In this document: positions 1 to 40,376 of the stretch, one piece after another
Layout: each line of letters starts with the position of its first letter
Numbering within the stretch: the stretch's first letter is position 1
NCBI GenBank assembly: GCA_017424105.1
Contig: JAFPBK010000027.1
Span: 1-41,001, forward strand
Direction of reading: 5' to 3'
DNA length: 41,001 nucleotides
Origin: Kiritimatiellia bacterium
Lineage (GTDB): Bacteria > Verrucomicrobiota > Kiritimatiellia > RFP12 > UBA3636
Notes under the pieces: model-generated
What the model was told of the DNA's origin: nothing
What the model saw: only the letters and a program-made list of their open reading frames with translations
The model's database searches: none
Translations under genes and position numbers: made by a program

Positions 1-576
1 ATTTGGGATCCTGTTGACCAAGTTTATTCAACAACATTGTATTATGCAGGTGACGAGTATGATGAATATGGTATGATGGAAGCTCGTGGAGCAACTCCAG
101 GATCTTGGATCGATATGGCAACTCTTGGAAATTCTGATTTGACACTTAGAAATGGTGATGCTTTCTGGATTGATTCATCTACAGTCAATGCACAAGCAAT
201 AATTACTGGTGAAGTTCCAACAACAGCAAATACAATCACTATCATTCCAGGATTCAATATGGTTGCAAATCCATATCCAAAAGCAGTCAAGGTTAATGAT
301 TTATTTTCCATTAGTGGTCTTAAGGGGCTTGATTGGGGTATATTTGAAGAGCTAGGTGATACTCTTGAAATTTGGGATCCTGTTGACCAAGTTTATTCAA
401 CAACATTGTATTATGCAGGTGACGAGTATGATGAATATGGTATGATGGAAGCTCGTGGAGCAACTCCAGGATCTTGGATCGATATGGCGACTCTTGGAAA
501 TTCTGATATTGAAATTCCGGCAGGAGGTGCTTTCTGGGTAAACTCAAAGGTAACAGCAACACTAACATTCAAATAA
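1..576 (+). CDS. Tandem-repeat protein, 5' end cut by the window edge (module C, gene 1)
   Basis: Frame 1 is open from nt 1, and the track ORF 37..576 is in the same frame. Two ~123-aa repeats end in a G(D/G)AFW-type motif. It is a paralogue of 1940..2752 and 3452..4258. Confidence 0.7.
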   Translation: MWDPVDQVYSTTLYYAGDEYDEYGMMEARGATPGSWIDMATLGNSDLTLRNGDAFWIDSSTVNAQAIITGEVPTTANTITIIPGFNMVANPYPKAVKVNDLFSISGLKGLDWGIFEELGDTLEIWDPVDQVYSTTLYYAGDEYDEYGMMEARGATPGSWIDMATLGNSDIEIPAGGAFWVNSKVTATLTFK

Positions 577-639
577 TTTCTTATATTCACGACGAATATA
601 AGTTTAACTAAAAACTAAAATAGAAAGAAAATAAAAACA

Positions 640-1206
640 ATGAAAAAAATCGTAATAATCGCTGCAGTAGCACTTGTTGCTATGTCAATGCAGGCAGCTC
701 AGATTAACTGGGGTCTAACAGGTATGATTAAATTCAATAATAACCTTGTTGGATCAGGGGCTACTTTAACTCTTGTATGTCTAGATGGTGTTACAGACTG
801 GGAAACATATGCTAAAGATGTTGCTGCAGGAAAAGCAACATCTGGTATTGCTGCTACAAAAACTTCTGAAACTACATCTATGGCTATTCCAACAATGAAG
901 TCTTATGCATATACTTGGAGCGATGAAGGAACAGATATCGCAAATGCAGAAATCAAAAAAGGTACAGATTTTGCATTTGTTGTAACTGTTCAAGATGCAG
1001 GAAAATCTTATTACTGGGCTTCAGATGCATTTACCGTATCTGATACAAGTTCTAATTGGAATGGAACAAAGAACACCTACACAATGTCTGTTACAGTTTC
1101 AAACGCAATGGGTTCAGATGGTTCAAAGTGGACAGCTGTTCCAGAGCCAGCATCTGCTATGCTAGCACTTGCAGGCGTTGCAATGCTAATCCGCCGTCGT
1201 AAGTAA
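640..1206 (+). CDS. Small PEP-CTERM sorting-domain protein (module C, gene 2)
   Basis: N-terminal signal peptide MKKIVIIAAVALVAMSMQAAQ. C-terminal VPEPASAMLALAGVAMLIRRRK, which is PEP, then a TM helix, then a basic tail. Confidence 0.85.
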   Translation: MKKIVIIAAVALVAMSMQAAQINWGLTGMIKFNNNLVGSGATLTLVCLDGVTDWETYAKDVAAGKATSGIAATKTSETTSMAIPTMKSYAYTWSDEGTDIANAEIKKGTDFAFVVTVQDAGKSYYWASDAFTVSDTSSNWNGTKNTYTMSVTVSNAMGSDGSKWTAVPEPASAMLALAGVAMLIRRRK

Positions 1207-1237
1207 GCGACGCGCTGATTACAGCAAATATATAAAC

Positions 1238-1277
1238 AATAAAACCACCCTCGCAAGAGAGTGGTTTTATTGTTTTT
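1238..1277. terminator. Bidirectional intrinsic terminator between convergent PEP-CTERM genes
   Basis: AAACCACCCTC-gcaa-GAGAGTGGTTT hairpin with an A-run upstream and TTATTGTTTTT downstream. Confidence 0.6.
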
Positions 1278-1308
1278 AAGTTATGTGAGTATGTTTACTC
1301 TACCACAA

Positions 1309-1860
1309 TTACTTGCGGCGACGAATCAACATAGCTACACCAGCCAATGCCAACATTGCGCTAGCTGGCTCTGGAACAGCTGTGTATGTAGCTGTCCACT
1401 GAGATGGTGCAGCGATTGCTGATGAGGCGAATGTTGCTTGTGTTGGATCTTCGCCAGCAGCTTTATCATATGCATATGTAGGATATTGGTTTGTGCCAGT
1501 CATATAGTATAGTGCATTTGCTGAATCGTAAACAACGATAGCAAAGTTATACTGCTCTCCACCAGCTGAACGAGCAACTAGAGCATCGCTTGTTGCTGTT
1601 ACAGCTGTAGATGAGCTCTTACCTGCAGAAACAGTATCTGAGCTAATTGTTGCAGCAGCTAGTTGAGACTCAAATTCTTCTGCAGTTGTAGCATTGAAAG
1701 TTGTGTCTGCTAGAACTAGGTAAATTGTACCATTCATAGCTGCGCCTGTTGAATCAACAAACTTGCCTGAACGACCAAAATTTACAACCCAGTCAATAGA
1801 TGCTGCAGAAGCTGAAATAGCTACTAGAGCAACTGCCATCATTGTGATGAATTTTTTCAT
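1309..1860 (-). CDS. Small PEP-CTERM sorting-domain protein (module B, gene 2)
   Basis: Signal peptide MKKFITMMAVALVAISASAAS. The C-terminal VPEPASAMLALAGVAMLIRRRK is identical to the other two copies. Confidence 0.85.
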   Translation of the reverse strand: MKKFITMMAVALVAISASAASIDWVVNFGRSGKFVDSTGAAMNGTIYLVLADTTFNATTAEEFESQLAAATISSDTVSAGKSSSTAVTATSDALVARSAGGEQYNFAIVVYDSANALYYMTGTNQYPTYAYDKAAGEDPTQATFASSAIAAPSQWTATYTAVPEPASAMLALAGVAMLIRRRK

Positions 1861-1898
1861 ATTTTATTCTCTTTCTAATATTTGTTATAGTTTATTTA

Positions 1899-1928
1899 TA
1901 AAAAGTGGGAGAAAAATGTTCTCCCACT
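1899..1928 (-). terminator. Hairpin plus short U-run between module B gene 1 and gene 2
   Basis: AGTGGGAGAA-N5-TTCTCCCACT (10-bp stem) is followed on the minus strand by TTTTATAAA. Confidence 0.45.
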
Positions 1929-1939
1929 AAATCTTTATA

Positions 1940-2752
1940 TTATTCAGCGGATGGGAATGATACTGTACCACCATTACCTGCTAACATCCAAAAGCCCTGG
2001 CCAACAGCAATGTCAGCATGTAGAGCTGTCTGATAACCATCGCCCCAACCAGCTCCTAGAGCAATATCGTCATCATAATTATCTGGTGTGTTGTTTACAT
2101 CGTCAAAAACACCATCAACAGAATTACCCCAGTAGTATGCAGTCATATATGTTGCAGTAGCAGCGTCCCAGATTTTAATATAGTCTGTACCTTCTTCACC
2201 AAAACCTTCGCATTTGATGTCTTGTAATTCAATTGCCATAGGGAGAGTGTTACATACAAGGGTCATTGCATTAACTGGAAGAGTTATAGTATTTGAAGTA
2301 GAAACTTCGCCAGCGAATGTAGCTGTACCACCATTACCTGCTAGCATCCAGAAACCTTGTCCAGGAACGATTGTTGAGTGTAGAGCAGTCTGGTAACCAT
2401 CGCCCCAACCAGCACCTAGTGCGATATCGTCATCGTAATTATCAGGAGTGTTATTTACGTCATCAAAAACACCATCTACTGAGTCACCCCAATAGTATGC
2501 TGTCATATATGTAGCAGTAGATGCATCCCAGATTTTGATATAGTCTGTACCTTCTTCACCAAAACCTTCGCATTTGATGTCTTGAAGGTCTATTGAAGTG
2601 TCGCCAATATACTGGAATTGGTTACCAATAATTGTCATAGCATTAACAGGTAGTTCAATCTTTGAATAACCAACAACATTAGCTGATGGAACTTCTGTTG
2701 CGCTTGCGGCAGGGTTATTTTTGGAGCAAAAAAATAGGGGTAAAATTCGCAC
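1940..2752 (-). CDS. Tandem-repeat protein (module B, gene 1); start uncertain
   Basis: Two ~123-aa repeats (LQDIKCEGFGEEGTDYIKIWDA...GQGFWMLAGNGG). No signal peptide. The only upstream in-frame start is a GTG at 2752, in the loop of a hairpin. The first ATG is at 2638. Confidence 0.6.
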   Translation of the reverse strand: MRILPLFFCSKNNPAASATEVPSANVVGYSKIELPVNAMTIIGNQFQYIGDTSIDLQDIKCEGFGEEGTDYIKIWDASTATYMTAYYWGDSVDGVFDDVNNTPDNYDDDIALGAGWGDGYQTALHSTIVPGQGFWMLAGNGGTATFAGEVSTSNTITLPVNAMTLVCNTLPMAIELQDIKCEGFGEEGTDYIKIWDAATATYMTAYYWGNSVDGVFDDVNNTPDNYDDDIALGAGWGDGYQTALHADIAVGQGFWMLAGNGGTVSFPSAE

Positions 2753-2765
2753 GGAATTTTACCCC
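2728..2765 (-). promoter_or_regulatory. Conserved 12-bp-stem hairpin plus T7 tract overlapping the 5' end of the repeat-protein gene
   Basis: On the minus strand: GGGGTAAAATTC-cgtgc-GAATTTTACCCC, then TA, then T7. A homologous element lies at 4205..4240. Confidence 0.5.
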
Positions 2766-2804
2766 TTAAAAAGAGAAAAGCCACCCCCGTAAGGAGATGG
2801 CTTT
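2766..2804 (-). terminator. Intrinsic terminator of the PEP-CTERM gene 2838..3386
   Basis: On the minus strand, AAGCCATCTCC-ttac-GGGGGTGGCTT is followed by TTCTCTTTTT. Two positions pair as G-U only in the minus-strand transcript. Confidence 0.65.
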
Positions 2805-2837
2805 ATGAATTAGTTTGCTGTGTAATCAGCGATCGGA

Positions 2838-3386
2838 TTACTTACGACGGCGGATTAGCATTGCAACGCCTGCAAGTGCTAGCATAGCAGAAGCTGGCTC
2901 TGGAACAGCTGTATATTTAACATTAGAAGTGTTCTGATAAGTAGCACCAATATCATTATATCCAAATGTAATTGAAGTAGGTGTTGTTGGGTCTGTGTAG
3001 GCATATTGAGACTTTACAGCAGATAGATAATATTGTGCTCCATCATAAACAACAATTTGGAAATCATATTGAGAACCGCCTTGAGCTTGTGATAACCAGC
3101 TAGAATCTGTAGCTGTATTATTTGTTGCCTTACCATCTGCTACAGTTGTTGTTCCTACAGTAATAGATGATAGAGTGGACTCAAACGTTTCCTTTGTTGT
3201 TGTTGCTGTCAATGCCGCAGCATCATCAGCTAAGATTAGGTAAATATTACCATTGTAGTTAACTCCTGTTGAATCCACAATTCTTTTTGCTGCAGTAGTT
3301 AGACCAGAGAACTTCCAGTCAATAGAAGCTGCAGAAGCAGAAATTGCTACTAGAGCAACCATCATAATTGTTACTAATTTTTTCAT
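2838..3386 (-). CDS. Small PEP-CTERM sorting-domain protein (module A, gene 2)
   Basis: Signal peptide MKKLVTIMMVALVAISASAAS and C-terminal VPEPASAMLALAGVAMLIRRRK. Confidence 0.85.
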   Translation of the reverse strand: MKKLVTIMMVALVAISASAASIDWKFSGLTTAAKRIVDSTGVNYNGNIYLILADDAAALTATTTKETFESTLSSITVGTTTVADGKATNNTATDSSWLSQAQGGSQYDFQIVVYDGAQYYLSAVKSQYAYTDPTTPTSITFGYNDIGATYQNTSNVKYTAVPEPASAMLALAGVAMLIRRRK

Positions 3387-3451
3387 AGTTTTATTTTCTT
3401 TCTTTATTATTTTGTTTTAGTGGGAAGGTAACCCCATCCCAAAATTATTTT

Positions 3452-4258
3452 TTATTCAACAGTAGGAAAAACAACAGAGCCTCCATTAACGGACTGAACC
3501 CAGAAACCCTGACCAACATCTATCTTTATGTCAACGATAAGTTGATCTGCGTCACCCCAGCCAGCACCAAGAGTCTCTTCATATGTATCATCTGCAAATA
3601 CTCCATCAGCTTCTTCTCCGAAGAAATATGCTTCTTTATATGTACCTGTAGATGAATCCCAGAATTTAATCCAATCTGTACCATCCTGAGCAAAATCACC
3701 TGCAACAGTAATATCCTGAATGTTAATTGCTTGAGGAATTGGATTTGCTATAAGAGTCATTGCATTAACAGGTACATTAACTGTATTATTTTTTGAAACT
3801 TCGCCATTAAGAACCAATGAACCTCCATTAACAGATTGAGCCCAAAAACCCTGTCCTAGATTTACATCTAAATCAATGACAATCTGATCTGCGTCACCCC
3901 AACCAGCACCAAGAGACTCTTCATAATTGTCATCAATGAAAACTCCATCAGCTTCTTCTCCGAAGAAATATGCTTCTTGGTATGAACCTGTGGACGCATC
4001 CCAGAATTTAATCCAATCTGTACCATCCTGAGCAAAATCACCTGCAACAGTAATATCCTGAATGTTGATAATGGTCTCACCAATATTCTGGAACTGGTTA
4101 CCAACGATAGTCATTGCGTTAGCTGGTAGTGTAATCTTTGAATAACCAACAACATTAGCTGAGCCAACTTCTGTTGCGCTTGCGGCAAGGGTTGTTTTTG
4201 GAGCAAAAAAAGGGGTAAAATTTGCATGGAATTTACCCCTAAAAAACAGAAAAGCCAC
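3452..4258 (-). CDS. Tandem-repeat protein (module A, gene 1); start uncertain, possibly phase-off
   Basis: Two ~123-aa repeats (IQDITVAGDFAQDGTDWIKFWD...GQGFW.QSVNGGS). The 5' end has the same hairpin/T7 architecture as module B. The loop ATG at 4227 is one nt out of frame. The first in-frame ATG is at 4114. Confidence 0.55.
   Translation of the reverse strand: MAFLFFRGKFHANFTPFFAPKTTLAASATEVGSANVVGYSKITLPANAMTIVGNQFQNIGETIINIQDITVAGDFAQDGTDWIKFWDASTGSYQEAYFFGEEADGVFIDDNYEESLGAGWGDADQIVIDLDVNLGQGFWAQSVNGGSLVLNGEVSKNNTVNVPVNAMTLIANPIPQAINIQDITVAGDFAQDGTDWIKFWDSSTGTYKEAYFFGEEADGVFADDTYEETLGAGWGDADQLIVDIKIDVGQGFWVQSVNGGSVVFPTVE
4205..4240 (-). promoter_or_regulatory. Conserved hairpin plus T7 tract at the 5' end of the module A repeat-protein gene
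   Basis: On the minus strand: GGGGTAAATTC-catgc-AAATTTTACCCC (one bulge), then T7 (plus-strand A-run 4205-4211). Confidence 0.5.
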
Positions 4259-4282
4259 CCCAAAAAGGAGTGCAAAATTTTC

Positions 4283-4342
4283 TAGCGCTTTAATAAATTT
4301 GTCCCCAAGGTCTCCAATGTCCCCATTGTCCCCTAAGCGCTA
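4283..4342. repeat. Four tandem 9-mers bracketed by a short inverted repeat
   Basis: GTCCCCAAG GTCTCCAAT GTCCCCATT GTCCCCTAA (4301-4336) is flanked by TAGCGCTTTA and TAAGCGCTA. Confidence 0.75.
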
Positions 4343-4439
4343 AACTGCCTGTTCAATCGTCAAATCGTCTCACGAATTACGATTTTCACGCAATGCGTGC
4401 GTGCAAGGCACGCTAGGCCCGTTTTGAGTACAAGGCGGA

Positions 4440-5100
4440 ATATACGAGAGGAGCGTGTCGCTATCACTCACGCACCTCTCGCCTCCGAAGGCTCAGGCGC
4501 AGAGCGCCTTCGTATGCGCACTGATTATCTCAGTTGCGCATGAATAAATTTTAGAGATGTGTGAGGAGCCCTTCACAAATTTCGGGCACCTCACACCCAG
4601 TAATGTTATTAGATGAAGCGGTGCGAAGCACCATGAAGCATGCCTACGGCATATAAAGCATTGCGAAGCAATATATGCGGTGAGATTAAAACATATGATG
4701 TGCAGCACGGGGACGTACTGCACCCCAGTTATTCTGTAAGACGGGGACGTCTTACTGCCCAGTTAACGTGTAGGACGAGGACGTCCTACACCCCAGAGTT
4801 GTGCAAGACGAGACGGCATTACACCCCAGTTAAGCAAACACTTTAACTAATCTATTAGTTATTCACTAATCACTATTCACTAGATTCCGCGATAGTCAAT
4901 ACACGTTAATCTTGAAAAATCATCATGGTACTCCAGCCAGGACGACGCCTGGCCGCTCCGAGATAATTGAATCACGCCCACCACGTGCACAGCAACTAGC
5001 CACAAAACACGCACGCAGCATCCGCACAAATCCAAGCAAAATTATAGTCAATCCTGTCTAAAAACTTCGCACTTTTAGGCATCACGTGTTGTGCGTGCAC
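4440..5100. repeat. Mosaic intergenic repeat, copy A (inverted relative to copies B and C)
   Basis: It aligns by eye, as a reverse complement, to 11500-12075. Shared blocks are the mini-hairpin array, the ~33-nt hairpin array, the ATTCACT repeats and the ~200-bp core. Confidence 0.8.
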
Positions 5101-5108
5101 TAGAGTAG

Positions 5109-6113
5109 CTAGCGGGCTGCTGTGGCTGCTCTCACAAGAACTACAAGATATCCAAGCGTATATGCTGCAAGACGTAATAGCGCATATTTGCGCTTCTCTA
5201 ATAGCGCGACAATCACGCGCTGCCATACACTCAAATATGGCTTAGCAAGATAACCTATAGAAAGTGCTTTGCAAATATTATCAGAAACAGCTGACATATT
5301 TGATTTTCCACGCTGCCCTCTTCCATGTCGCAATGTAATCGACAAAGCAAACATAAAGGCATCACGCGTTGTGCGTTTAGTTAACAATACTTCATCTACG
5401 CCTTTTGCTTTTCCATGTTGGAAAATTATTTCACAAGCAGTAAAGCCATTGTCTATATACCAGGCAGGTATAGAGCGAGAAACTGATGCCAGATTTTCCC
5501 TAAATCCATAAAGCACAATTGGCAAATGTACCCAATTATTTGTTTCTAATGCGACATCAAATATGAATGGACAATCCTCACCACCTGTCAGTTTTGGAAA
5601 TTTGATATTACATAAAATTTCTTTTCTGTAAATGTATTGCCAAACATATATGACAAGATTTCCTTTTGTCAGATAATTCTGAAGTGGATTATCTATTGTG
5701 GTAAGCTTATCTAATACATCGCCAGATGGAGCCCACTTAGGTGATGTAGTAAACGCACAACGATCAAACTGAAGTACATCTGCTCCTGTGCTTTCAATAC
5801 CTGCTGTAGCCAATGCCATTGCTTCAGGATGAAGCATGTCATCCTGATCTGCAAACATAATGTATGAGCCATTAGCAGAGTCTAATCCAAAATTACGGGA
5901 ATCGCCAGTGCCGCCATTTGGTTTTGTCAGGACCCTGAATCGTGAATCCTTTTGTGCATATTCTTTAAGTATTGCAAGTGATGAATCTGTAGATAAATCA
6001 TTAACACAGATGCATTCCCAATTAGAATATGTCTGTGCAAGTATACAATCCAAGAGAGCACGCAAATAGCGTTCTCCATTATATACTGGCACGATGATTG
6101 ATACTAGATTCAT
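5109..6113 (-). CDS. Family 2 glycosyltransferase
   Basis: MNLVSIIVPVYNGERYL...VNDLSTDSS...FADQDD is a GT-A/GT2 signature. The start was moved to ATG 6113. The track's 73-aa N-terminal extension runs through repeat copy D. Confidence 0.85.
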   Translation of the reverse strand: MNLVSIIVPVYNGERYLRALLDCILAQTYSNWECICVNDLSTDSSLAILKEYAQKDSRFRVLTKPNGGTGDSRNFGLDSANGSYIMFADQDDMLHPEAMALATAGIESTGADVLQFDRCAFTTSPKWAPSGDVLDKLTTIDNPLQNYLTKGNLVIYVWQYIYRKEILCNIKFPKLTGGEDCPFIFDVALETNNWVHLPIVLYGFRENLASVSRSIPAWYIDNGFTACEIIFQHGKAKGVDEVLLTKRTTRDAFMFALSITLRHGRGQRGKSNMSAVSDNICKALSIGYLAKPYLSVWQRVIVALLEKRKYALLRLAAYTLGYLVVLVRAATAAR

Positions 6114-6411: not shown

Positions 6412-8166
6412 TTACTTGCTTGGTGCGATGCAACCTAGCTTGCAAAGCTGATCGCATAAGCCACAGCCATTACATGCTGTTGGATTGATGCTTGGGCGAC
6501 CATTTGCCCCAACCTCAATCGCAGGACAACCACAACGCAAGCAAAGCTTGCAGTTGACGCAACGCTCGTCATCAATTACACGTGCAGGGCCCATTGGCTT
6601 TCTTACATGCAATGGACATGGTGCACGAGAAATAATGAGCGATGGCTCGTCTGCCTCTAGCTCTTCTTTAATTATAGCGATTGTTTCAGCCTGATTGTAA
6701 GGATTGCATACACGAATGCGCTCCATACCACATGCACGAGCAATTGCCTCAATTGAAGCTGATTTTGTAGGCTCGCCCATCAGAGTGGTGCCTGTGCCTG
6801 GATGCTCCTGATGTCCTGTCATTGCTGTAATACGATTATCTACAACAATCAATGTGCTATTGCCTTTGTTGTAAACTACATCAAGCAAACCTGTGATACC
6901 TGAATGGAAGAATGTTGAGTCACCAACAATACCAACGACCTTCTTTTGTTCGCCAGCCTTTTGCATACCATGTGCAATTGTAAAACCAGCACCCATGCAG
7001 AGAATTGTGTCGGTACGATTCAATGGAGGGAATACACCTAAACTGTAGCAGCCAATATCACCACTCACAATTACATCAAACTTTGTGAGTGCTAAGAAAA
7101 GTCCACGATGTGGACAGCCTGCACAAAGCATTGGTGGACGTGCTGGCAAATCACCTGCCTCCTCAACAATGCTTGGAAGCTGTGGCAGGGTCTGCTCAGG
7201 ATAAAGCTGTTGCTTGATTGCATAAAGCTTTGCTGGTGTCAGCTCACCACAACGTGGCACAAGTCCCTTGCCTTCACAAGCAATGCCAAGTGACTTGATG
7301 TGCTCCTCCATAATTGGATCGCCCTCTTCTATCACTACAAGACGCTTTACCTTAGCAGCAAAGCTCTTGAATAGTTCATCAGGGAATGGCCAGCCAAAGC
7401 CTATCTTCAAAATACTTGCCTCTGGGAATATCTCAATACAATGAGCTGCTGTTACACCATGAGAAATAATGCCTAGCTCAGAGCCATTTTCAATGATCTC
7501 ATTCATTGGTGATGTGCATGCCTCTGCTGCTTGGGCGACCATACGCTCCTCAACCTTTACGCGGAGCTTGCGTCCCCAAATTGGCAGTGGAACAAATTGC
7601 TGCACATTGCTCTTGAAGCATGTGGCATTACGCTCACGTGGTTCACGCTCCTCTACTAATGAGCGAGAGTGGCTTACGCAAGTTGTAGTACGCAAAATTA
7701 CTGGGCAACCATATTTCTCTGAAAGCTCAAAGCCCTTGATAACAAAGTCGCGTGCCTCAGCTGCATTTGCTGGCTCAAGCACTGGGATTTTAGCTAAGCG
7801 CGCATAGTGTCGCGTATCCTGCTCTGTTTGAGATGAATCCTGACCAGGATCATCAGCCACAACAATTACCATGCCACCAACTACACCGATGTAGGAAAGT
7901 GTCATCAATGGGTCTGCAGCAACGTTAAGTCCAACAAGCTTCATTGTTGTGATTGTGCGAGCACCTGCGATAGAAGCACCTGCAGCTGCCTCAAGGGCAA
8001 CCTTTTCATTTGGCGACCACTCGCAATATACACCTTGCTTTGAGTACTGAACGAGATTTTCCAAAATCTCTGTTGATGGTGTGCCAGGATAACCGAATGT
8101 TGCAGTTACACCACCCTCAAATGCACCACGTGCAATTGCTTCATTTCCAGAATAAAGTTTTTTCAT
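6412..8166 (-). CDS. iorA: Indolepyruvate:ferredoxin oxidoreductase, alpha subunit
   Basis: The N-terminus is GNEAIARGAFEGGV..GYPGTPSTEI. There is a TPP-binding region. The C-terminus has two 4Fe-4S motifs, CVNCKLCLRCGCP and CNGCGLCDQLC. Confidence 0.9.
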   Translation of the reverse strand: MKKLYSGNEAIARGAFEGGVTATFGYPGTPSTEILENLVQYSKQGVYCEWSPNEKVALEAAAGASIAGARTITTMKLVGLNVAADPLMTLSYIGVVGGMVIVVADDPGQDSSQTEQDTRHYARLAKIPVLEPANAAEARDFVIKGFELSEKYGCPVILRTTTCVSHSRSLVEEREPRERNATCFKSNVQQFVPLPIWGRKLRVKVEERMVAQAAEACTSPMNEIIENGSELGIISHGVTAAHCIEIFPEASILKIGFGWPFPDELFKSFAAKVKRLVVIEEGDPIMEEHIKSLGIACEGKGLVPRCGELTPAKLYAIKQQLYPEQTLPQLPSIVEEAGDLPARPPMLCAGCPHRGLFLALTKFDVIVSGDIGCYSLGVFPPLNRTDTILCMGAGFTIAHGMQKAGEQKKVVGIVGDSTFFHSGITGLLDVVYNKGNSTLIVVDNRITAMTGHQEHPGTGTTLMGEPTKSASIEAIARACGMERIRVCNPYNQAETIAIIKEELEADEPSLIISRAPCPLHVRKPMGPARVIDDERCVNCKLCLRCGCPAIEVGANGRPSINPTACNGCGLCDQLCKLGCIAPSK

Positions 8167-33941: not shown

Positions 33942-36281
33942 CTAAAGAGCCATTCCAATTTTAGACAAAACATTTTCAGCGATTAATCCACACTCCTCCT
34001 CGTCATCCGTCCAAAGGGAGTATTTCCCATCATTCATTGCCTTCAAACGATACGTATGGCCGTTCTTGGAGAAATCAATGCTATTGGTTTCAGGCTCTGG
34101 CTGAATTGAATCATGGAAACATCTAGTGCCTTCCGCTACTTTCTCATAAACATAAGCAAGCAACAACTCATAGCTGCGACTGTTCTCTGTCTTGCCCCGC
34201 GCAAGAAAGTAGTGCCCGGAAGCGCTTGAAACAACTCCCCAATAGGCGTAGTCGCGCATAAAAAGTTGTGGCATGGAAATCATAAATCTACGCCAATCGG
34301 TGACGGCTGATTTTCCTTCCACTATAACGGCATCACAAACCGCTATTATATTAATCTCCTCTTGCTTCTCCCTGCGCCAAAAATCAATAAAGGCCTTAAT
34401 CCCAGGTGCGTAACATCCGTCTATCTCATCTCTGAGATACCTCTTCCAAGAATAGAATCTTTCCGCAGGCGGGACAATGCCGAAAGATTTATGTTTTCCG
34501 AATCGATAGTCGGAAATCGTCAACATAGCCGCATAAAATTTGCATCTCTGCGATTCTTCAATTCCATCCGAGAAAAGAGCTGTAATGCCACGTAGGCATT
34601 TTGTGTACGCCGAGAATTCCGCTTTGTTACACACCCCATCATTTTTTGACCAGCAAAGGAGGCATCCAATTTGTCCGCGAAGATATGCGTCGGTTTCAGC
34701 CTCCCTCATCAAATTTGCCCACTCTGTATCTGCACAGCGAAGTTTGGCCTTAGCAGATTCCTCTTCGATTCTCGCACGCTCAAAGCCTGGCACATTCTTG
34801 ATTGTGCCCAGAAACTCGTCCATTCTCATTTCGCATTTTTCGAATTCCTCCATCCAGCGGTCAATCTGTGTCATTGCCGTGATAACCTTGCCGACATCGT
34901 CAAACCTGTCGTTGCAATTTTCAATTATCGTACAGTTCCTGAGAAATCTTCCCCAAGACTTGAAATCTTCGAGCCTGACGTTTTCGCCATCGGCATTGCC
35001 GTTGACAGCCATTGTACGCAACGGAAATTTTCTCAGAAATGCCAACACACCATAAAATCCGAGTCTTTCGGGATAAGTGAATGAATCCTGGAGGTAAAGA
35101 TCAAGAAGGTTTCTAGAACCTGTTGAATCCCAACCGTATTCAGGATCAAGATATTTCGTGAAATCAAACCATTGGCGATCCTGCTCTACCTCGGTGAAAC
35201 CTATCAACGACTGCATGTCGTTGTACAGTTGCAGAAAATCAATGTACAAATATCTCGCAGCCGTGGAATGGCGCGCACGCCACGCCTCTGCCGTGTAGCG
35301 TGGAACTAACAACTCTAGCGTTCGCTCATCGCGAGAATTGGCAACCTCTGCGAGTTGCGGGCACACATTCTGTCTTGCAAACTGGATTGAAATCAGTCGC
35401 AGCAAAAGACGCATATATCGATCTTCAACTTCGGCGACATCCACCTCGCCGTTTTCACGGATACCCCGCTGTCCCCAGAAGTAATCAATCCAATCGTTGT
35501 CGACAATCCGCTTCCATTCTTCTTCAAATGCGGCAGTTCCTTTTTCATCGGCACCCATAGCATTTTGCTGGCGCAATTCCTCTTCGAGCGTTGACTTCAA
35601 GATATCGAAAGCCGAAAGTTGCAGCCCTCTCGCATTCATTTTCACGTAGAGCTCGTCGCCTTGGGAAAACTTATTGAGATCGAGCCAGTGAAACGTTATG
35701 CAGGAAAGTGCATCATAGCGACTGGTGTCGTAAGTATAGCCGGATTCCTTCAGCAAAGCAAACACTTCATCGATAACCACCAGCATTGAAATAACGGTAG
35801 CGTCTTTCCGCCAAGCCCACTTGAACCAGTCTTTCCTGCATAGTACTTCCGAGACCTGAAGGCTCTTCGCATTTGCCTCATGGTGCAATACGCATGCAAC
35901 ATGCTTAACAATTTCATTGCAGAACTCTTCCGCAGAGATGCGCGTTTCATACGTGAATCTCGATAATCCATCCAAACCGATTAAATCTTTCTTATCGGCA
36001 GGCGAAAATATCCAGTGTAGTATGAATAGCGTTGTGAGACGTTGCTGGCCATCTAGAGGCTCGAACGCGTCATTGCGGTCGTAGCCATAGATGAAATCGA
36101 GATGCAGCGGACGCTGTCCGTTGGAATATACCGAATCGAGAAGATCGTTAAGAAACGCCCTGCGGATGTCACGGATCTTCGGTTTCCTACGCCCCTCGGC
36201 ATAATCGCGTTGTATCTGCGGTATCCGGATCTTACTCGTCTTAAGCAAATCGAGAAACGTCATATTGATCTGCTCGCTCAC
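33942..36281 (-). CDS. DUF262 (ParB/Srx-fold NTPase-like) protein with a long unassigned C-terminal region
   Basis: IRIPQIQRDYAEGR, LDGQQRLTTLFILHW and YVKMNARGLQLSAFDILKS. No DUF1524 His-Me motif was found. The GTG start overlaps the upstream stop (GTGA) and lies 6 nt after a GGAGGTG. Confidence 0.85.
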   Translation of the reverse strand: MSEQINMTFLDLLKTSKIRIPQIQRDYAEGRRKPKIRDIRRAFLNDLLDSVYSNGQRPLHLDFIYGYDRNDAFEPLDGQQRLTTLFILHWIFSPADKKDLIGLDGLSRFTYETRISAEEFCNEIVKHVACVLHHEANAKSLQVSEVLCRKDWFKWAWRKDATVISMLVVIDEVFALLKESGYTYDTSRYDALSCITFHWLDLNKFSQGDELYVKMNARGLQLSAFDILKSTLEEELRQQNAMGADEKGTAAFEEEWKRIVDNDWIDYFWGQRGIRENGEVDVAEVEDRYMRLLLRLISIQFARQNVCPQLAEVANSRDERTLELLVPRYTAEAWRARHSTAARYLYIDFLQLYNDMQSLIGFTEVEQDRQWFDFTKYLDPEYGWDSTGSRNLLDLYLQDSFTYPERLGFYGVLAFLRKFPLRTMAVNGNADGENVRLEDFKSWGRFLRNCTIIENCNDRFDDVGKVITAMTQIDRWMEEFEKCEMRMDEFLGTIKNVPGFERARIEEESAKAKLRCADTEWANLMREAETDAYLRGQIGCLLCWSKNDGVCNKAEFSAYTKCLRGITALFSDGIEESQRCKFYAAMLTISDYRFGKHKSFGIVPPAERFYSWKRYLRDEIDGCYAPGIKAFIDFWRREKQEEINIIAVCDAVIVEGKSAVTDWRRFMISMPQLFMRDYAYWGVVSSASGHYFLARGKTENSRSYELLLAYVYEKVAEGTRCFHDSIQPEPETNSIDFSKNGHTYRLKAMNDGKYSLWTDDEEECGLIAENVLSKIGMAL

Positions 36282-38101
36282 TTTGCACCTCCATTCAAAT
36301 AAATGTTGAGCCGCTTATGCAGTTCTTTCTTATAGCACATCATGTCGCTTGTATGCCAACGAACGGCATCCATGGCGGATGCAGTGCCCCCCGAAAAGTA
36401 TTTGAGAAAGACATTTTTCGTCCCTAGAGGAACGAAAAGTCCATTACGGTCCCGTTCGATTACGCAGTCTCTTTTGTACGGAAATGGCGCATTGCCATAT
36501 CCGCGATTCGTACCGCTGTCAAGAAGGACGAGATTGCCAAGCGAATCTTTGTCGGACGCATCTTGGTCGAAACCAGTTCCACGCGAATAGTATTCGGAAA
36601 CCTTTCCATATAAATCGAGGAAAGCATCCCCGGAATCCCTCCGATCGCGTGTCATGGCTTCAATCAGTGACTGAGATTCCAAAAAGAGTTCTTTAGCGTC
36701 TTTCGATGATTCCGCTGATAGCGATTGTGCAACGCATTCAAGCCATTTTATCTTATCATCGATATCCTGCATTGTATTTGTCGTCTGAGAATCAACATGT
36801 TCGATATCCCAATTCTCCTCCCTGTAAGCTGCGAAGTCGAAGCGAAGCCCAGAAGTGCGATAAAGATCTACATTGAACAGGAGAAGTATTTTGCGGACGC
36901 TGTTGGAATCTTCGTATGTGACCGTTTCTATATCTGCCACATGTTTCAAGACGCCTGATATCAGACCTCGCAAAACACAATAGGTTTGTTCCTCGTCCCA
37001 ATCATCGGCATCCTTTTTGGCTTTTTCAATCGCCGAGTGAATATCCGATGGACTTTTACCATTTGCAACAAGGTATCCGACATAGTTATATATGTTAGTG
37101 TCTTCATACCAGTGGACAAGCATATCAAAAATACCCTTGACGCGATTCCACAATTCCAGAAACGCTCCCCCACCGTCAGCTTCGTCAAAGCATTGCTGAA
37201 ACCATCTGTAAGATCCATCGGTACCAGGTTTCTCGCCTGACACAAAATCAAAGAGAAGGTCCATCCGAGTTAGGGGATCTGCGGACTTGTCGCTTATGAA
37301 ACACCAAAATCCGTCATCAGAGAATCGACACTCCATAGCATCCCAAATCATAGAAATCTTCAAACTCTCGGACTCCCAACGTTCTTCAGTCTTCTTGCAG
37401 GCAAGTATAAATAGAGCCTTGATAAGTTCAGACGAAGTAAGTCCTATTTTTCCCTTATTCAGGCGGTTAAAAACTTTTATCGCCTCAACTCTTTCATCCG
37501 ATTCAGCAACAACGGTTTTATCAAAGGGAGGAACTACATACCATATAAACTGCACTTTCCGATCGCTGTCACTATCAAACAAGGCACATTCAAACTGCCC
37601 AAATGCCTTCGGATATTTTTCTGAAACAACCTCCATCCACTCCCTGATCAAATTGTTGGCTTTATGAAGATGATAGCTGTCTATGTCATTTTGAGGATCA
37701 AGGCGGTCAAGATCAAGATTCTTGCGTGCTGCATATTTTATCACATAAAGCCTATTCATGACCCTTTCCGCCTTCTTTGGCGATAGATATGGAATGAGAT
37801 TTTTCAATACAAGCAGCATTGTCGTCAATCGCTGCTGCCCATCCAACACTTCCCATTCTCCATTTTCCAAATTTCGAACCACAACAGGCTGTAAAAAATA
37901 TGACACGGCTGCCGTGGCACGGACAAAGGACAACATGTCATCAAGAAGGTCCTTTACTTGTTTGTCACCCCACCGATAGCCACGCTGAAATGATGGTATC
38001 AGAAAACGATGGTTTCCGTCCAAGAATTCCGCAACAGCCTTCGGTCTTAATGTATCAACCTGGCGCCCCCCCGCCATTTCAACTGTTCTTTCTTCTGTCA
38101 T
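36278..38101 (-). CDS. GmrSD-family type IV restriction endonuclease-like protein (DUF262 + DUF1524)
   Basis: The N-terminus has LIPSFQRGYRWGDKQV and LDGQQRLTTMLLVL. The C-terminus has WDIEHVDSQT and LGNLVLLDSGTNRGYGN, a His-Me finger of DUF1524 type. ATG 38101 behind AGGAG is preferred over the track's TTG at 38107. Confidence 0.85.
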   Translation of the reverse strand: MTEERTVEMAGGRQVDTLRPKAVAEFLDGNHRFLIPSFQRGYRWGDKQVKDLLDDMLSFVRATAAVSYFLQPVVVRNLENGEWEVLDGQQRLTTMLLVLKNLIPYLSPKKAERVMNRLYVIKYAARKNLDLDRLDPQNDIDSYHLHKANNLIREWMEVVSEKYPKAFGQFECALFDSDSDRKVQFIWYVVPPFDKTVVAESDERVEAIKVFNRLNKGKIGLTSSELIKALFILACKKTEERWESESLKISMIWDAMECRFSDDGFWCFISDKSADPLTRMDLLFDFVSGEKPGTDGSYRWFQQCFDEADGGGAFLELWNRVKGIFDMLVHWYEDTNIYNYVGYLVANGKSPSDIHSAIEKAKKDADDWDEEQTYCVLRGLISGVLKHVADIETVTYEDSNSVRKILLLFNVDLYRTSGLRFDFAAYREENWDIEHVDSQTTNTMQDIDDKIKWLECVAQSLSAESSKDAKELFLESQSLIEAMTRDRRDSGDAFLDLYGKVSEYYSRGTGFDQDASDKDSLGNLVLLDSGTNRGYGNAPFPYKRDCVIERDRNGLFVPLGTKNVFLKYFSGGTASAMDAVRWHTSDMMCYKKELHKRLNIYLNGGAK

Positions 38102-38132
38102 TTCCAAAATCTCCTTTTTTTATTCTCTACAA

Positions 38133-39218: not shown

Positions 39219-40265
39219 TCACTTGAGCCTGAAATAGGTGGTATTTTTGCCGTTGCCCTCACGCGCAAGATCCCCCTCGGCAACGAGCTTACGAAGTGCG
39301 CCCTCTACCGAGCTGATACTGAGGGACGGACAAAGCTCCATGACGTCCTGCTTCTTGAAGCGACCGACCTTATTCATCGTGGCGCGTCTCACCATTTCAA
39401 GAGAGGAAAGCTTGGTTTCCACAAGTGCAAAGCGGTCTTCAAAATCACGGTACGCGGAAAGGATCGTACCGAGCAGATATTTGATGAACGGTACGGTATC
39501 CGCTTCTCCCTCGTGCCAGCCTTGCTGCGACTGCCCTAGGGCATCGTAATACAGATCTTTGTTCTTTGCTATCTTGGCTTCCAAGGAGATATACTTCCCA
39601 ACGTAGAATCCGTTTCGGTAAAGGAGGAGCGTGGTGAGCAGACGGCTCATTCTGCCGTTGCCATCATTGAACGGATGGATGCAAAGAAAATCGTGTATAA
39701 AGGTAGGAATGGCAATGAGAGGCTCAAGCTCCATATTGCCGATCACACGGTTATATTCGTTACAAATGGCTTCAAGTGCCTCTGGTGTCTCAAAGGGGTC
39801 GAGAGGTGTAAACAGCGTTTCAGTATGTCCGTCGGGATAGGTTGCGCTGATATAATTCTGTACGCTCTTAGTTCTGCCTGCCACGGGATTGTTCATATGG
39901 CTGTAGAGGATCTTGTGAAGATGAAGGATATAGTTCGGTGTCAAGGGGATGGCATCAAAGCTTTCGTGAATGATATTCAAAACGTCTCGGTACCCGGCAA
40001 TCTCCTGCTCTTCGCGGTTTCTCGGTGTGGACTTCTCACCCATCAGCTGACGAATACGGGTGCTCGTGGTCACGATGCCCTCAATGGCGTTGGACGCTTC
40101 GGTGCTTTGTACCTTTGCAATCTCAACAAGCTTTTCAAGCTCCTCAGGGCGTTGCTTCAAATATAATTCTTGTTTTCCGGCTTCCTTGTAAATTGCGGCA
40201 ATCAAGCCGAGCAACTCGGAATCCCATTTGTTTTCACTGATTTTCGTATAATTAAAGGTTCTCAT
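39219..40265 (-). CDS. fic: Fic family protein (class II, N-terminal inhibitory motif, C-terminal wHTH-like region)
   Basis: The Fic motif is HPFNDGNGRMSRLL. The Fic_N-type inhibitory motif is SNAIEG (S-x-x-x-E-G). The start was set to ATG 40265, 5 nt after GGAGGTG. Confidence 0.9.
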   Translation of the reverse strand: MRTFNYTKISENKWDSELLGLIAAIYKEAGKQELYLKQRPEELEKLVEIAKVQSTEASNAIEGIVTTSTRIRQLMGEKSTPRNREEQEIAGYRDVLNIIHESFDAIPLTPNYILHLHKILYSHMNNPVAGRTKSVQNYISATYPDGHTETLFTPLDPFETPEALEAICNEYNRVIGNMELEPLIAIPTFIHDFLCIHPFNDGNGRMSRLLTTLLLYRNGFYVGKYISLEAKIAKNKDLYYDALGQSQQGWHEGEADTVPFIKYLLGTILSAYRDFEDRFALVETKLSSLEMVRRATMNKVGRFKKQDVMELCPSLSISSVEGALRKLVAEGDLAREGNGKNTTYFRLK

Positions 40266-40283
40266 TTTATCACCTCCAAACAA

Positions 40284-40376
40284 TTCCCTTAAATTATAGC
40301 ACAAATCAAGGGGATTGTCAACATCTCAAGGGAACATTCCCTTATTATTTTACTCAAATTAAGGGAATTTATTCAT
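40284..40376. promoter_or_regulatory. Cluster of AAGGGRA/TYCCCTT half-sites upstream of fic, including a palindrome
   Basis: TTCCCTT at 40284, AAGGGGA at 40308, the palindrome AAGGGAA-CA-TTCCCTT at 40328-40343, and AAGGGAA at 40370. Confidence 0.4.

Follow-up and report, generated by a model that had tools for sequence, protein, structure and literature searches.

In Mycoplasma pulmonis, the vsa genes share a single expression site that contains the promoter and the DNA for the amino terminus, the silent genes lack both and have a recombination site at their 5' end, and recombination transfers the 5' end of the expression site onto a formerly silent gene (PMC4534519). Here, we analysed a 41,001-nt stretch of DNA from a Kiritimatiellia bacterium (contig JAFPBK010000027.1 of assembly GCA_017424105.1, positions 1 to 41,001 of the forward strand, referred to as the window), and our results suggest, with a probability of about 80%, that three gene modules at its start, A, B and C, are silent cassettes of a multi-cassette phase or antigenic variation system of gut Kiritimatiellae. 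As judged from sequence comparison, none of these cassettes has a promoter, start codon or signal peptide, and functionally each begins at a 13-nt core, T-GCCGCAAGCGCA, at 2711-2699 in B and 4187-4175 in A. Among the closest known systems, vsa appears to share the logic of this one, the R64 shufflon seems to resemble it in site anatomy and the Mu G segment in geometry.

As in vsa, promoter and N-terminus are found here at a single site and the silent copies start at the recombination site. However, Vsa is a tandem-repeat lipoprotein, whereas the product here is a secreted beta-sandwich protein with a PEP-CTERM module, in another phylum; a nearby recombinase gene (HvsR in vsa) was not found at the loci examined, and the core measures 13 nt, the vrs box at which site-specific inversion of vsa occurs being 34 bp long. 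In the R64 shufflon, each sfx site consists of a 7-bp core between a left arm of 12 bp that varies and a right arm of 12 bp that is conserved, with a longest conserved stretch of 13 nt, and this lack of symmetry is believed to confine the tyrosine recombinase Rci to inversions (PMC11852207). Both systems have several short crossover sites within coding DNA and a constant N-terminal part with alternative downstream segments (pilV in the shufflon), and in both the site is asymmetric; tandem direct sites persist here, which would follow if recombination rarely deleted the DNA between sites of the same orientation. The rci gene adjoins the shufflon, whereas no recombinase was found at the loci examined here, the units exchanged are entire modules of two genes (~1.5 kb), the part that stays constant is no more than promoter, leader and signal peptide, and the location is chromosomal, in Kiritimatiellae.

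Invertible segments of the Mu G type (Mu G, P1 C, e14 P and p15B Min, inverted by the serine invertases Gin, Cin, Pin and Min) leave a constant 5' part of the gene, Sc, outside the segment and hold two convergent two-gene modules, Sv-U and U'-Sv', between inverted crossover sites that lie inside coding sequence. This geometry matches that of the convergent pairs of body and PEP-CTERM gene between inverted cores described below, but the phage segments encode tail fibres, have an adjoining invertase gene and use roughly symmetric sites of 26-34 bp, and no serine invertase was found at the loci examined here. In Akkermansia muciniphila, a gut member of the Planctomycetes-Verrucomicrobia-Chlamydiae (PVC) group, PEP-CTERM surface proteins are phase-varied by DNA inversion (PMC11892184). 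Those are small intergenic promoter invertons that turn complete genes ON or OFF, whereas the piece swapped in Kiritimatiellae would include the start codon and signal peptide and choose among many 5'-truncated cassettes. The Neisseria pilE/pilS and Borrelia vlsE systems are alike in having many promoterless, 5'-truncated silent copies, one expression locus and a DNA structure specific to the expression site, which is a G-quadruplex (G4) near pilE and an inverted repeat near vlsE. They produce mosaics with variable end points by non-reciprocal conversion, in contrast to the single 13-nt core and the cassettes in both orientations seen here.

Each module consists of two genes, the first for a secreted two-repeat beta-sandwich protein (the repeat protein) and the second for a PEP-CTERM-anchored partner, assigned from weak but consistent Pfam and NCBIfam matches to the C-terminal sorting signal. 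Modules A and B lie in tandem on the minus strand, and module C is convergent on the plus strand, as follows:

1..576, plus strand: 3' part of putative silent cassette C, whose repeat gene runs off the window start
640..1206, plus strand: PEP-CTERM gene of module C, running towards the convergent module B
1234-1275: bidirectional terminator between modules C and B
1309..1860, minus strand: PEP-CTERM gene of module B, starting at an ATG of its own and encoding a Sec signal peptide
1940..2698, minus strand: body of putative silent cassette B, coding for the mature repeat protein TEVPSANVVGY..., two beta-sandwich repeats, to the stop codon
2699..2711, minus strand: putative recombination core T-GCCGCAAGCGCA of cassette B, coding for Ala-Ala-Ser-Ala, the signal-peptide end once joined to the expression site
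2752..1940, minus strand: module B repeat gene as a mechanical open reading frame (ORF), open from GTG 2752
2838..3386, minus strand: PEP-CTERM partner gene of module A
3452..4174, minus strand: body of putative silent cassette A, the body type fused to promoter and signal peptide in contig L003
4175..4187, minus strand: putative recombination core T-GCCGCAAGCGCA of cassette A
4258..3452, minus strand: module A repeat gene as a mechanical ORF, open from GTG 4258

The core of cassette C and its flank lie 199 nt outside the window start and are visible in contig L001 (849-861), the flank belonging to the hairpin class that we call hpA. The AlphaFold2 model of the repeat protein (P0013, window 1940-2710) contains two beta-sandwich domains, with a mean predicted local distance difference test (pLDDT) of 89 and a predicted template modelling (TM) score, pTM, of 0.83. 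Foldseek comparison of this model with the PDB returned no match with E <= 0.001 (TM < 0.25), and Pfam and NCBIfam gave no match for the repeat protein.

Related loci were collected by scanning species-representative genomes for the core pattern and by genomic-context look-ups, which gave 45 junctions between a 5' flank and a body, 38 of them distinct, from ~11 Kiritimatiellae assemblies of human, ruminant and other gut samples. Two contigs, L001 and L002, are 99.96% identical to window positions 1-2724 and carry a repeat gene (7283..6468), 3.5 kb past B, that has a promoter, a leader, an ATG and a signal peptide. A preliminary description of the window, made from its letters alone, had suggested looking for a full-length paralogue with a signal peptide, and this gene is such a paralogue, in the same organism. 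At the expression junction, a sigma-70-like promoter (TTGACT, 18 nt, then TACTTT with an upstream TG) is followed by a leader of ~75 nt and by ATG plus MKKILLGAMIASVAL, in frame to T-GCCGCAAGCGCA, and the AASA encoded by the core forms the AXA signal-peptidase site. In L003, the same promoter and signal peptide are joined to a body 89% identical in DNA to cassette A. Exactly one expression junction is found in each locus that shows any (eight loci: L001, L002, L003, L009, L015, L043, L044 and L045), against 37 silent junctions in all. Among loci seen end to end, L045, situated between fabZ/lpxA/secretin and groEL/dnaK, has one expressed and four silent junctions, and L043 has one and three. 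The silent junctions fall into ~10 flank classes, which include hpA, a second hairpin class (hpB), AbiE or RloB/AAA_21 neighbours, locus boundaries and the far end of the promoter segment.

The DNA 5' of position -1 is unrelated between these flank classes, the core is invariant and the 3' side is partly conserved, so that the site is asymmetric. Among the 38 distinct junctions, T at -1 and the 11 bases after +1, with the four third-codon positions of the core among them, are present in 38/38 and G at +1 in 37/38 (L029 has T); polymorphism sets in at position +13. The 22-residue PEP-CTERM tail of the same modules served as a control and, although equally conserved as a peptide, varies at most third codon positions (majority allele ~0.66). 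Constraint on the core thus acts at the level of DNA. A scan of metagenome DNA with the core pattern returned only unrelated GC-rich matches (L030-L042).

Exchange points were located in pairs of junctions with flanks, or bodies, at least 90% identical and the other side different. In pairs with the same flank and different bodies, the first difference falls at +13 to +21 in 10/11, the remaining pair (L029/L028) differing at +1, where L029 has its T; in the 13 pairs with the same body and different flanks, only 1-3 nt are common 5' of the core. All 24 informative exchange points thus map to the 13-nt core, although weaker homology (~80%) runs ~45 nt further. This observation bears on the possibility that the same cassettes are switched in a RecA-dependent and non-reciprocal manner, through gene conversion or a double crossover, like pilE/pilS and vlsE. 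The homology would then be supplied on the 5' side by the conserved block and on the 3' side by the conserved tail of the PEP-CTERM gene plus its terminator. Such blocks do bracket the modules, 13 nt exact plus ~45 nt at ~80% on the 5' side and, on the 3' side, a 69-nt tail plus terminators that are 93-99% identical between some modules. It is also consistent with gene conversion that no linked recombinase was found, that repertoires are very different in strains with 97-99% identical flanks, as replacement by imported DNA would give, and that the A-like body of L003 has a locally divergent patch in repeat 2, a hint of segmental conversion. However, RecA normally needs far more than 13 nt of exact identity, and 24/24 informative 5' exchange points lie in or at the edge of the 13 nt in spite of the adjoining 45 nt of homology. 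The invariance of the core at nucleotide level resembles that of a protein-recognised site, and convergent pairs in both orientations with inverted cores are not required by conversion. We consider a conversion-based system unlikely.

Our results also show that the same bodies occur at expressed and silent junctions, in a comparison between genomes and not within a clone. One body cluster is at the expression junction in L043 and L044 and silent in L017 and L024, the L017 silent body being 97% identical to the expressed body of L043; a second cluster occupies the expression junction of L003, with silent members in the window (cassette A) and in L029. Cassette A and the expressed copy of L003 are 97% identical over +60..+260 and have only 3 nt in common 5' of the core, and the body of cassette B is identical in L001/L002, with a different 5' flank. 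Conversely, no mismatch separates L001 from L002 over 8,140 nt, as far as the final base of a core, beyond which their bodies differ, and L046 has the A flank of the window (90% identity over 300 nt) with a different body. This body, P0020, carries the far flank of the promoter segment in L002 and the A-type flank of the window in L046; this would be compatible with a reciprocal swap, but the two contigs come from different samples. In L045, L009 and L043, promoter and housekeeping flanks are 93-99% identical around three different expressed bodies. One of the options raised in the preliminary description, silent cassettes that need recombination into an expression site, is supported by this exchange of bodies between junctions, by the identity of L001 and L002 that ends at the core and by one promoter, ATG and signal-peptide junction per locus beside many 5'-truncated copies.

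The absence of promoter, start codon and signal peptide would also fit decaying duplication pseudogenes, and since most sources are metagenome assemblies or metagenome-assembled genomes (MAGs), chimeric assembly has to be considered as well. However, complete silent bodies are all uninterrupted ORFs, of 225-259 aa or of 127-136 aa in single-repeat forms, and their ratio of nonsynonymous to synonymous substitution rates (dN/dS) is 0.09-0.24, silent-silent pairs included (A 0.18, B ~0.1). This purifying selection on the protein argues that silent bodies are expressed from time to time. The 5' truncation falls at one nucleotide in 38 distinct junctions, and assemblies made independently, from different hosts, show junctions of the same classes. 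A 13-nt repeat, being much shorter than assembler k-mers (contig names k141_...), cannot give rise to mis-joins. Pseudogenes or chimeras are for these reasons the least probable of the explanations weighed here. The single-repeat cassettes (127-136 aa mature) were observed in L006, L011, L015 and L029 (CALDQE MAG) and in L047; because some cassettes encode one repeat, the internal duplication of the body appears to vary by cassette and strain.

The 5' flanks of cassettes A and B were the subject of the preliminary description, which placed the start of the repeat genes inside a hairpin. The features of this region are:

2777..2804, minus strand: intrinsic terminator 1 of PEP-CTERM gene A, 12 pairs, 6 GC, loop of 4, tail TCTCTTTTTA, T-run to ~2767
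2728..2766, minus strand: hairpin 2 (hpA), AGGGGTAAAATT-CCGTGCG-AATTTTACCCCT plus A and T7, containing the spurious GTG 2752
2712..2727, minus strand: C/A-rich motif GCTCCAAAAATAACCC, non-coding, found 5' of the core in most, not all, silent junctions
4204..4272, minus strand: flank of cassette A, with a terminator 1 remnant at 4272-4256, hairpin 2 at 4240-4211 and T7 at 4210-4204

The features that it describes are all present, on the minus strand, where it places them. Upstream of module B on the minus strand, terminator 1 (2804-2777, then a T-run) is present, followed by a second hairpin with T7, its stem (2766-2736) having 13 pairs and a 5-nt loop and A plus T7 occupying 2735-2728. The sole in-frame start is GTG 2752 in the hairpin loop, directly after an in-frame TAA (2761-2759), the T-run of the hairpin is read as Phe-Phe, the next ATG is 38 codons downstream at 2638, and neither candidate N-terminus resembles a signal peptide. 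The claim that the genes begin inside the hairpin holds only for the mechanical ORF. The upstream DNA of A and B is near-identical from terminator 1 on, but 1-, 2- and 1-nt indels lie between the hairpin and GCCGCAAGC, the two cassettes have no common reading frame 5' of TGCCGCAAGCGCA (the codons of AASA), and the DNA before AASA is read as MAFLFFRGKFHANFTPFFAPKTTL in A and MRILPLFFCSKNNP in B. The shared frame exists only from GCC GCA AGC GCA (AASA) onwards. Because the indels put A and B in different frames, the stretch from hairpin to core is conserved as DNA and not as protein. The differences cca/cct, aac/aat and gca/gct in LP.NAM, cited previously as a sign of translation, are real, but the changes are not synonymous-only, since G/P, T/E and A/V replacements lie nearby.

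Comparison with homologues points in the same direction. Those with genuine N-termini begin with MKKILLGAMIASVALAASA or MKKTLIAIALAAMVAPAWA followed by AEV..., ordinary Sec signal peptides with an AXA end and the pattern MKK...ALAASA, then AEV. Other homologues, with bodies only 34-37% identical to that of B, carry its exact pseudo-N-terminus, MRILPLFFCSKNNPAASATEV, and identical junk before very divergent bodies is therefore best read as a DNA element and not as a protein N-terminus. ATG 2638 is internal to the first beta-sandwich domain, being situated downstream of the invariant VVGY strand, and in many body types this position is not a Met. Reassignment of a stop codon, which would extend the ORF upstream, was considered and ruled out; the bounding stop is TAA 2761-2759, and further upstream is the terminator of the preceding gene.

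Expression of the cassettes in place, by any of the routes proposed earlier, would explain why the ORFs are open from GTG 2752 and GTG 4258 and why the hairpin is well conserved between A and B, and the organism uses weak Shine-Dalgarno signals, so that the missing one is indecisive. Initiation controlled by hairpin melting does not agree with the unshared frame between hairpin and core, nor with the distribution of hpA-type hairpins, which are absent from all expressed copies and from most silent flank classes. The same absence speaks against attenuation or antitermination, and when window 1-5200 was scanned with Rfam (E <= 1), the hairpin regions gave no match. As regards attenuators, riboswitches and RNA thermometers in general, the leader of the expressed copies is a different one that does not contain this hairpin, and the frame is not conserved. 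Non-canonical initiation upstream is disfavoured by the frame change, and initiation at ATG 2638 (4114 in A) by the position of this codon within a domain, by its absence from many body types and by the lack of a promoter-like site in 2735-2640, between hairpin and ATG. The product would have no signal peptide, unlike its homologues. Taken together, in-place expression is very improbable.

The two hairpins with their T-runs are, as judged from sequence, probably tandem intrinsic terminators and not part of the gene. Both lie 3' of the stop of PEP-CTERM gene A (2838), downstream of a gene on the same strand; each is a G+C-containing stem-loop followed by a T-run, and the T-runs are on the coding (cassette) strand only. 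The 89-nt stretch 2810-2722 folds at -36.8 kcal/mol, compared with -16.6 +/- 2.7 for shuffled sequences (z = -7.4), a value equalled by 0/200 shuffles, and window 1-5000 has 12 terminator-like sites where 3.4 are expected. Tandem junctions have the order stop codon, terminator 1, hairpin 2 with T-run, ~16-20 nt with the C/A-rich motif, and core. The motif has variants such as CCCCAAAATATCTT and is absent from the expression-junction, fabZ-side, X1 and promoter-segment-far flanks. In other tandem junctions the position of hpA is taken by hpB, a long perfect hairpin with a T-run and a sequence unrelated to hpA. The simplest reading is that tandem terminators insulate silent modules from upstream read-through. 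The PEP-CTERM gene of the downstream silent module has its own ATG and an A-rich leader, and because of this ATG, read-through from an expressed upstream module would co-express a foreign partner. The hairpins seem to be dispensable for silence itself, since many silent flanks are without them and the cassette A copy is degraded, its hairpin 2 being weakened by a 1-nt deletion (fold z = -2.6).

In the mechanism that we propose, one segment per locus with promoter, ATG and signal peptide would join one body at the core, and recombination within the core would attach this segment to another body, so that a different module is made. The other cassettes would stay silent, their cores being preceded by unrelated DNA without promoter or start, and tandem terminators would block read-through into the next silent module. 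If the cassette system is accepted, site-specific inversion is the likeliest mode of exchange, with a chance somewhat above even; gene conversion is a possible but clearly weaker candidate, and some other mechanism is slightly less likely again. Inversion is favoured because the site is asymmetric, because convergent module pairs are bounded by inverted cores and because the promoter segment lies between inverted cores. The outer ends of the convergent pairs are inverted cores, spacers between divergent cassettes are bounded likewise, and in L001 (889 nt) and L015 (778 nt) the segment with promoter and signal peptide itself has cores of opposite orientation at its two ends; a single inversion would shift it from one cassette to the other. 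By analogy with sfx, the asymmetry of the site would explain the persistence of the tandem direct cassettes A and B. As in multiple-inversion systems, a short conserved crossover site is found at every junction and inverted sites bound the segments.

Several observations weigh against the cassette reading and against inversion. Multiple-inversion systems have a dedicated tyrosine or serine recombinase, as a rule encoded beside them, and none was found at the examined loci: Pfam gave none on 22 ORFs of the window and precomputed Pfam none in the complete loci L043 and L045, and in 10 further loci none of the other ORFs of at least 170 aa was recombinase-like, as judged by eye from N-terminal sequences without a family-library scan. 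It is possible that a remote recombinase is encoded elsewhere. No two recovered arrangements differ by one clean reciprocal inversion; a single inversion does not convert the window into the L001 arrangement, which requires more than one event. All evidence is comparative, between assemblies and not within a clonal population, most of the sources are metagenome assemblies or MAGs, and the window itself has no expression junction, its positions 4290-5100 showing only short motif-level similarity to promoter segments. The 423-aa HUH/RAYT-like gene beside the expression junction in L009 and L045 was considered as a dedicated recombinase and rejected, since it belongs to a large family with other members, at 35-39% identity, in unrelated contexts. 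It matches NF047646 with 38 bits (cut-off 80) and PF01797 with E = 0.0037, and the pairing of gene and palindromic targets that defines REP/RAYT elements was not found. An IS110-family gene (RNA-guided, DEDD) 1.5 kb upstream of the expression site in L003 (372-1658) occurs in this single contig and was taken as an insertion.

The HUH-like protein is a side observation in its own right. It has ~400 aa and two domains (L009 2042-3313; L045 15340-16530) and is very common in Kiritimatiellae, with more than 1,400 relatives. The N-terminal part resembles HUH/Y1 transposases (DHLHGII, AYIKDNP), the C-terminal half (~200 aa) is uncharacterised, and no PDB relative was found by sequence.

The expression junction is further marked by a perfect palindrome, GTTGCGCTTGC-C-GCAAGCGCAAC, that occurs only there (L001 7231-7253, minus strand; L003 3185-3207; L009, L043 and L045) and that originates from V-A-L codons that are the reverse complement of the core. 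Its arms are 9-11 bp in 5/6 variants, L015 has one mismatch, and silent sites have at most CTTGC-C-GCAAG. The palindrome could serve a recombinase as dimer site or mark the expression site by its structure, and under gene conversion it could be a break or initiation site. A more speculative and rather improbable explanation is an undescribed recombination system in which the palindrome would be extruded as a hairpin or cruciform and mark the obligatory partner, a non-classical enzyme (HUH-type or a structure-specific nuclease) would act on the asymmetric 13-nt core, and the defence modules in the spacers would be tied to switching. If this were true, the spacer modules could couple phage defence to surface-receptor variation.

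As to the spacers, those between divergent silent cassettes almost always hold toxin-antitoxin or abortive-infection modules and are bounded by inverted cores (L001 3966-5614; L045 8015-9363; L024 2785-6084; L043 3704-5681; L029 1100-2571; L052 7726-8136). The modules are AbiEi/AbiEii (Pfam-supported, with two more AbiE-like pairs recognised by eye only), AAA_21 with RloB, and a PIN toxin. They may be hitch-hikers, may stabilise the locus or may be linked to it in function. At window 1132-1383 and 2821-2912, the 3' ends of PEP-CTERM genes, with the adjoining terminators, are repeated in inverted orientation over 75-92 nt, with 93% complementarity between modules C and A, and the 250-nt convergent junction of PEP-CTERM ends is 96-99% identical between different genomes; this junction may be a second recombination substrate. 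Flanks and promoter segments contain clusters of short repeats (GGGGACA/GGAGAC, TTGCCCC and TTGGTGCAAA/TTGCACCAAA) at window 4296-4340 (minus strand), L046 140-190, L001 7650-7690, L003 2750-2960 and L047 60-260, the word TTGGTGCAAA/TTGCACCAAA being found also inside the hpB hairpin, and these clusters may bind accessory proteins or regulators. What appears to be a small defence island is located on the minus strand at the far end of the window (33942-38107 and 39219-40304) and comprises two adjoining GmrSD_N-domain genes, of 779 and 609 aa, with a Fic/DOC gene.

The family of the repeat protein extends beyond these loci. An exhaustive profile-free search returned 347 representative proteins, and no motif is more conserved across the family than that of the mature N-terminus, xEVxSxN(I/V)VGY. 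Among the best 150, 72/149 newly listed representatives have a Sec signal peptide followed by this motif, and many others begin with junk directly before ...PAWAAEVVSSNIVGY. A contig of higher GC content, L052, has two 5'-truncated cassettes with a common 42-nt block that starts exactly at the mature N-terminus; the DNA upstream is unrelated, and a PIN toxin gene lies between the modules. Because L052 has another shared block, the cassette design seems to recur with different cores.

Our literature search found no description of such switching in Kiritimatiellae and no paper naming both Kiritimatiell* and PEP-CTERM. Kiritimatiellae are common, almost uncultured bacteria of the gut and rumen, and the system offers in them a sequence-defined switch that consists of a single expression junction, a core of 13 nt and, in each genome, 4-6 or more cassettes of two genes. 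It explains why gene calls in MAGs start at spurious codons (MRILPLFFCSK... or an internal ATG), and the exact core motif can be used for read-level detection of switching in existing metagenomes. If a recombinase is found, the short asymmetric site could serve as an inversion tool, like Rci/sfx. The cassette repertoire turns over quickly between strains, which suggests that the surface structure, a secreted protein whose fold has no match in the PDB together with its PEP-CTERM-anchored partner, is strongly pressed to diversify by phages or the host.

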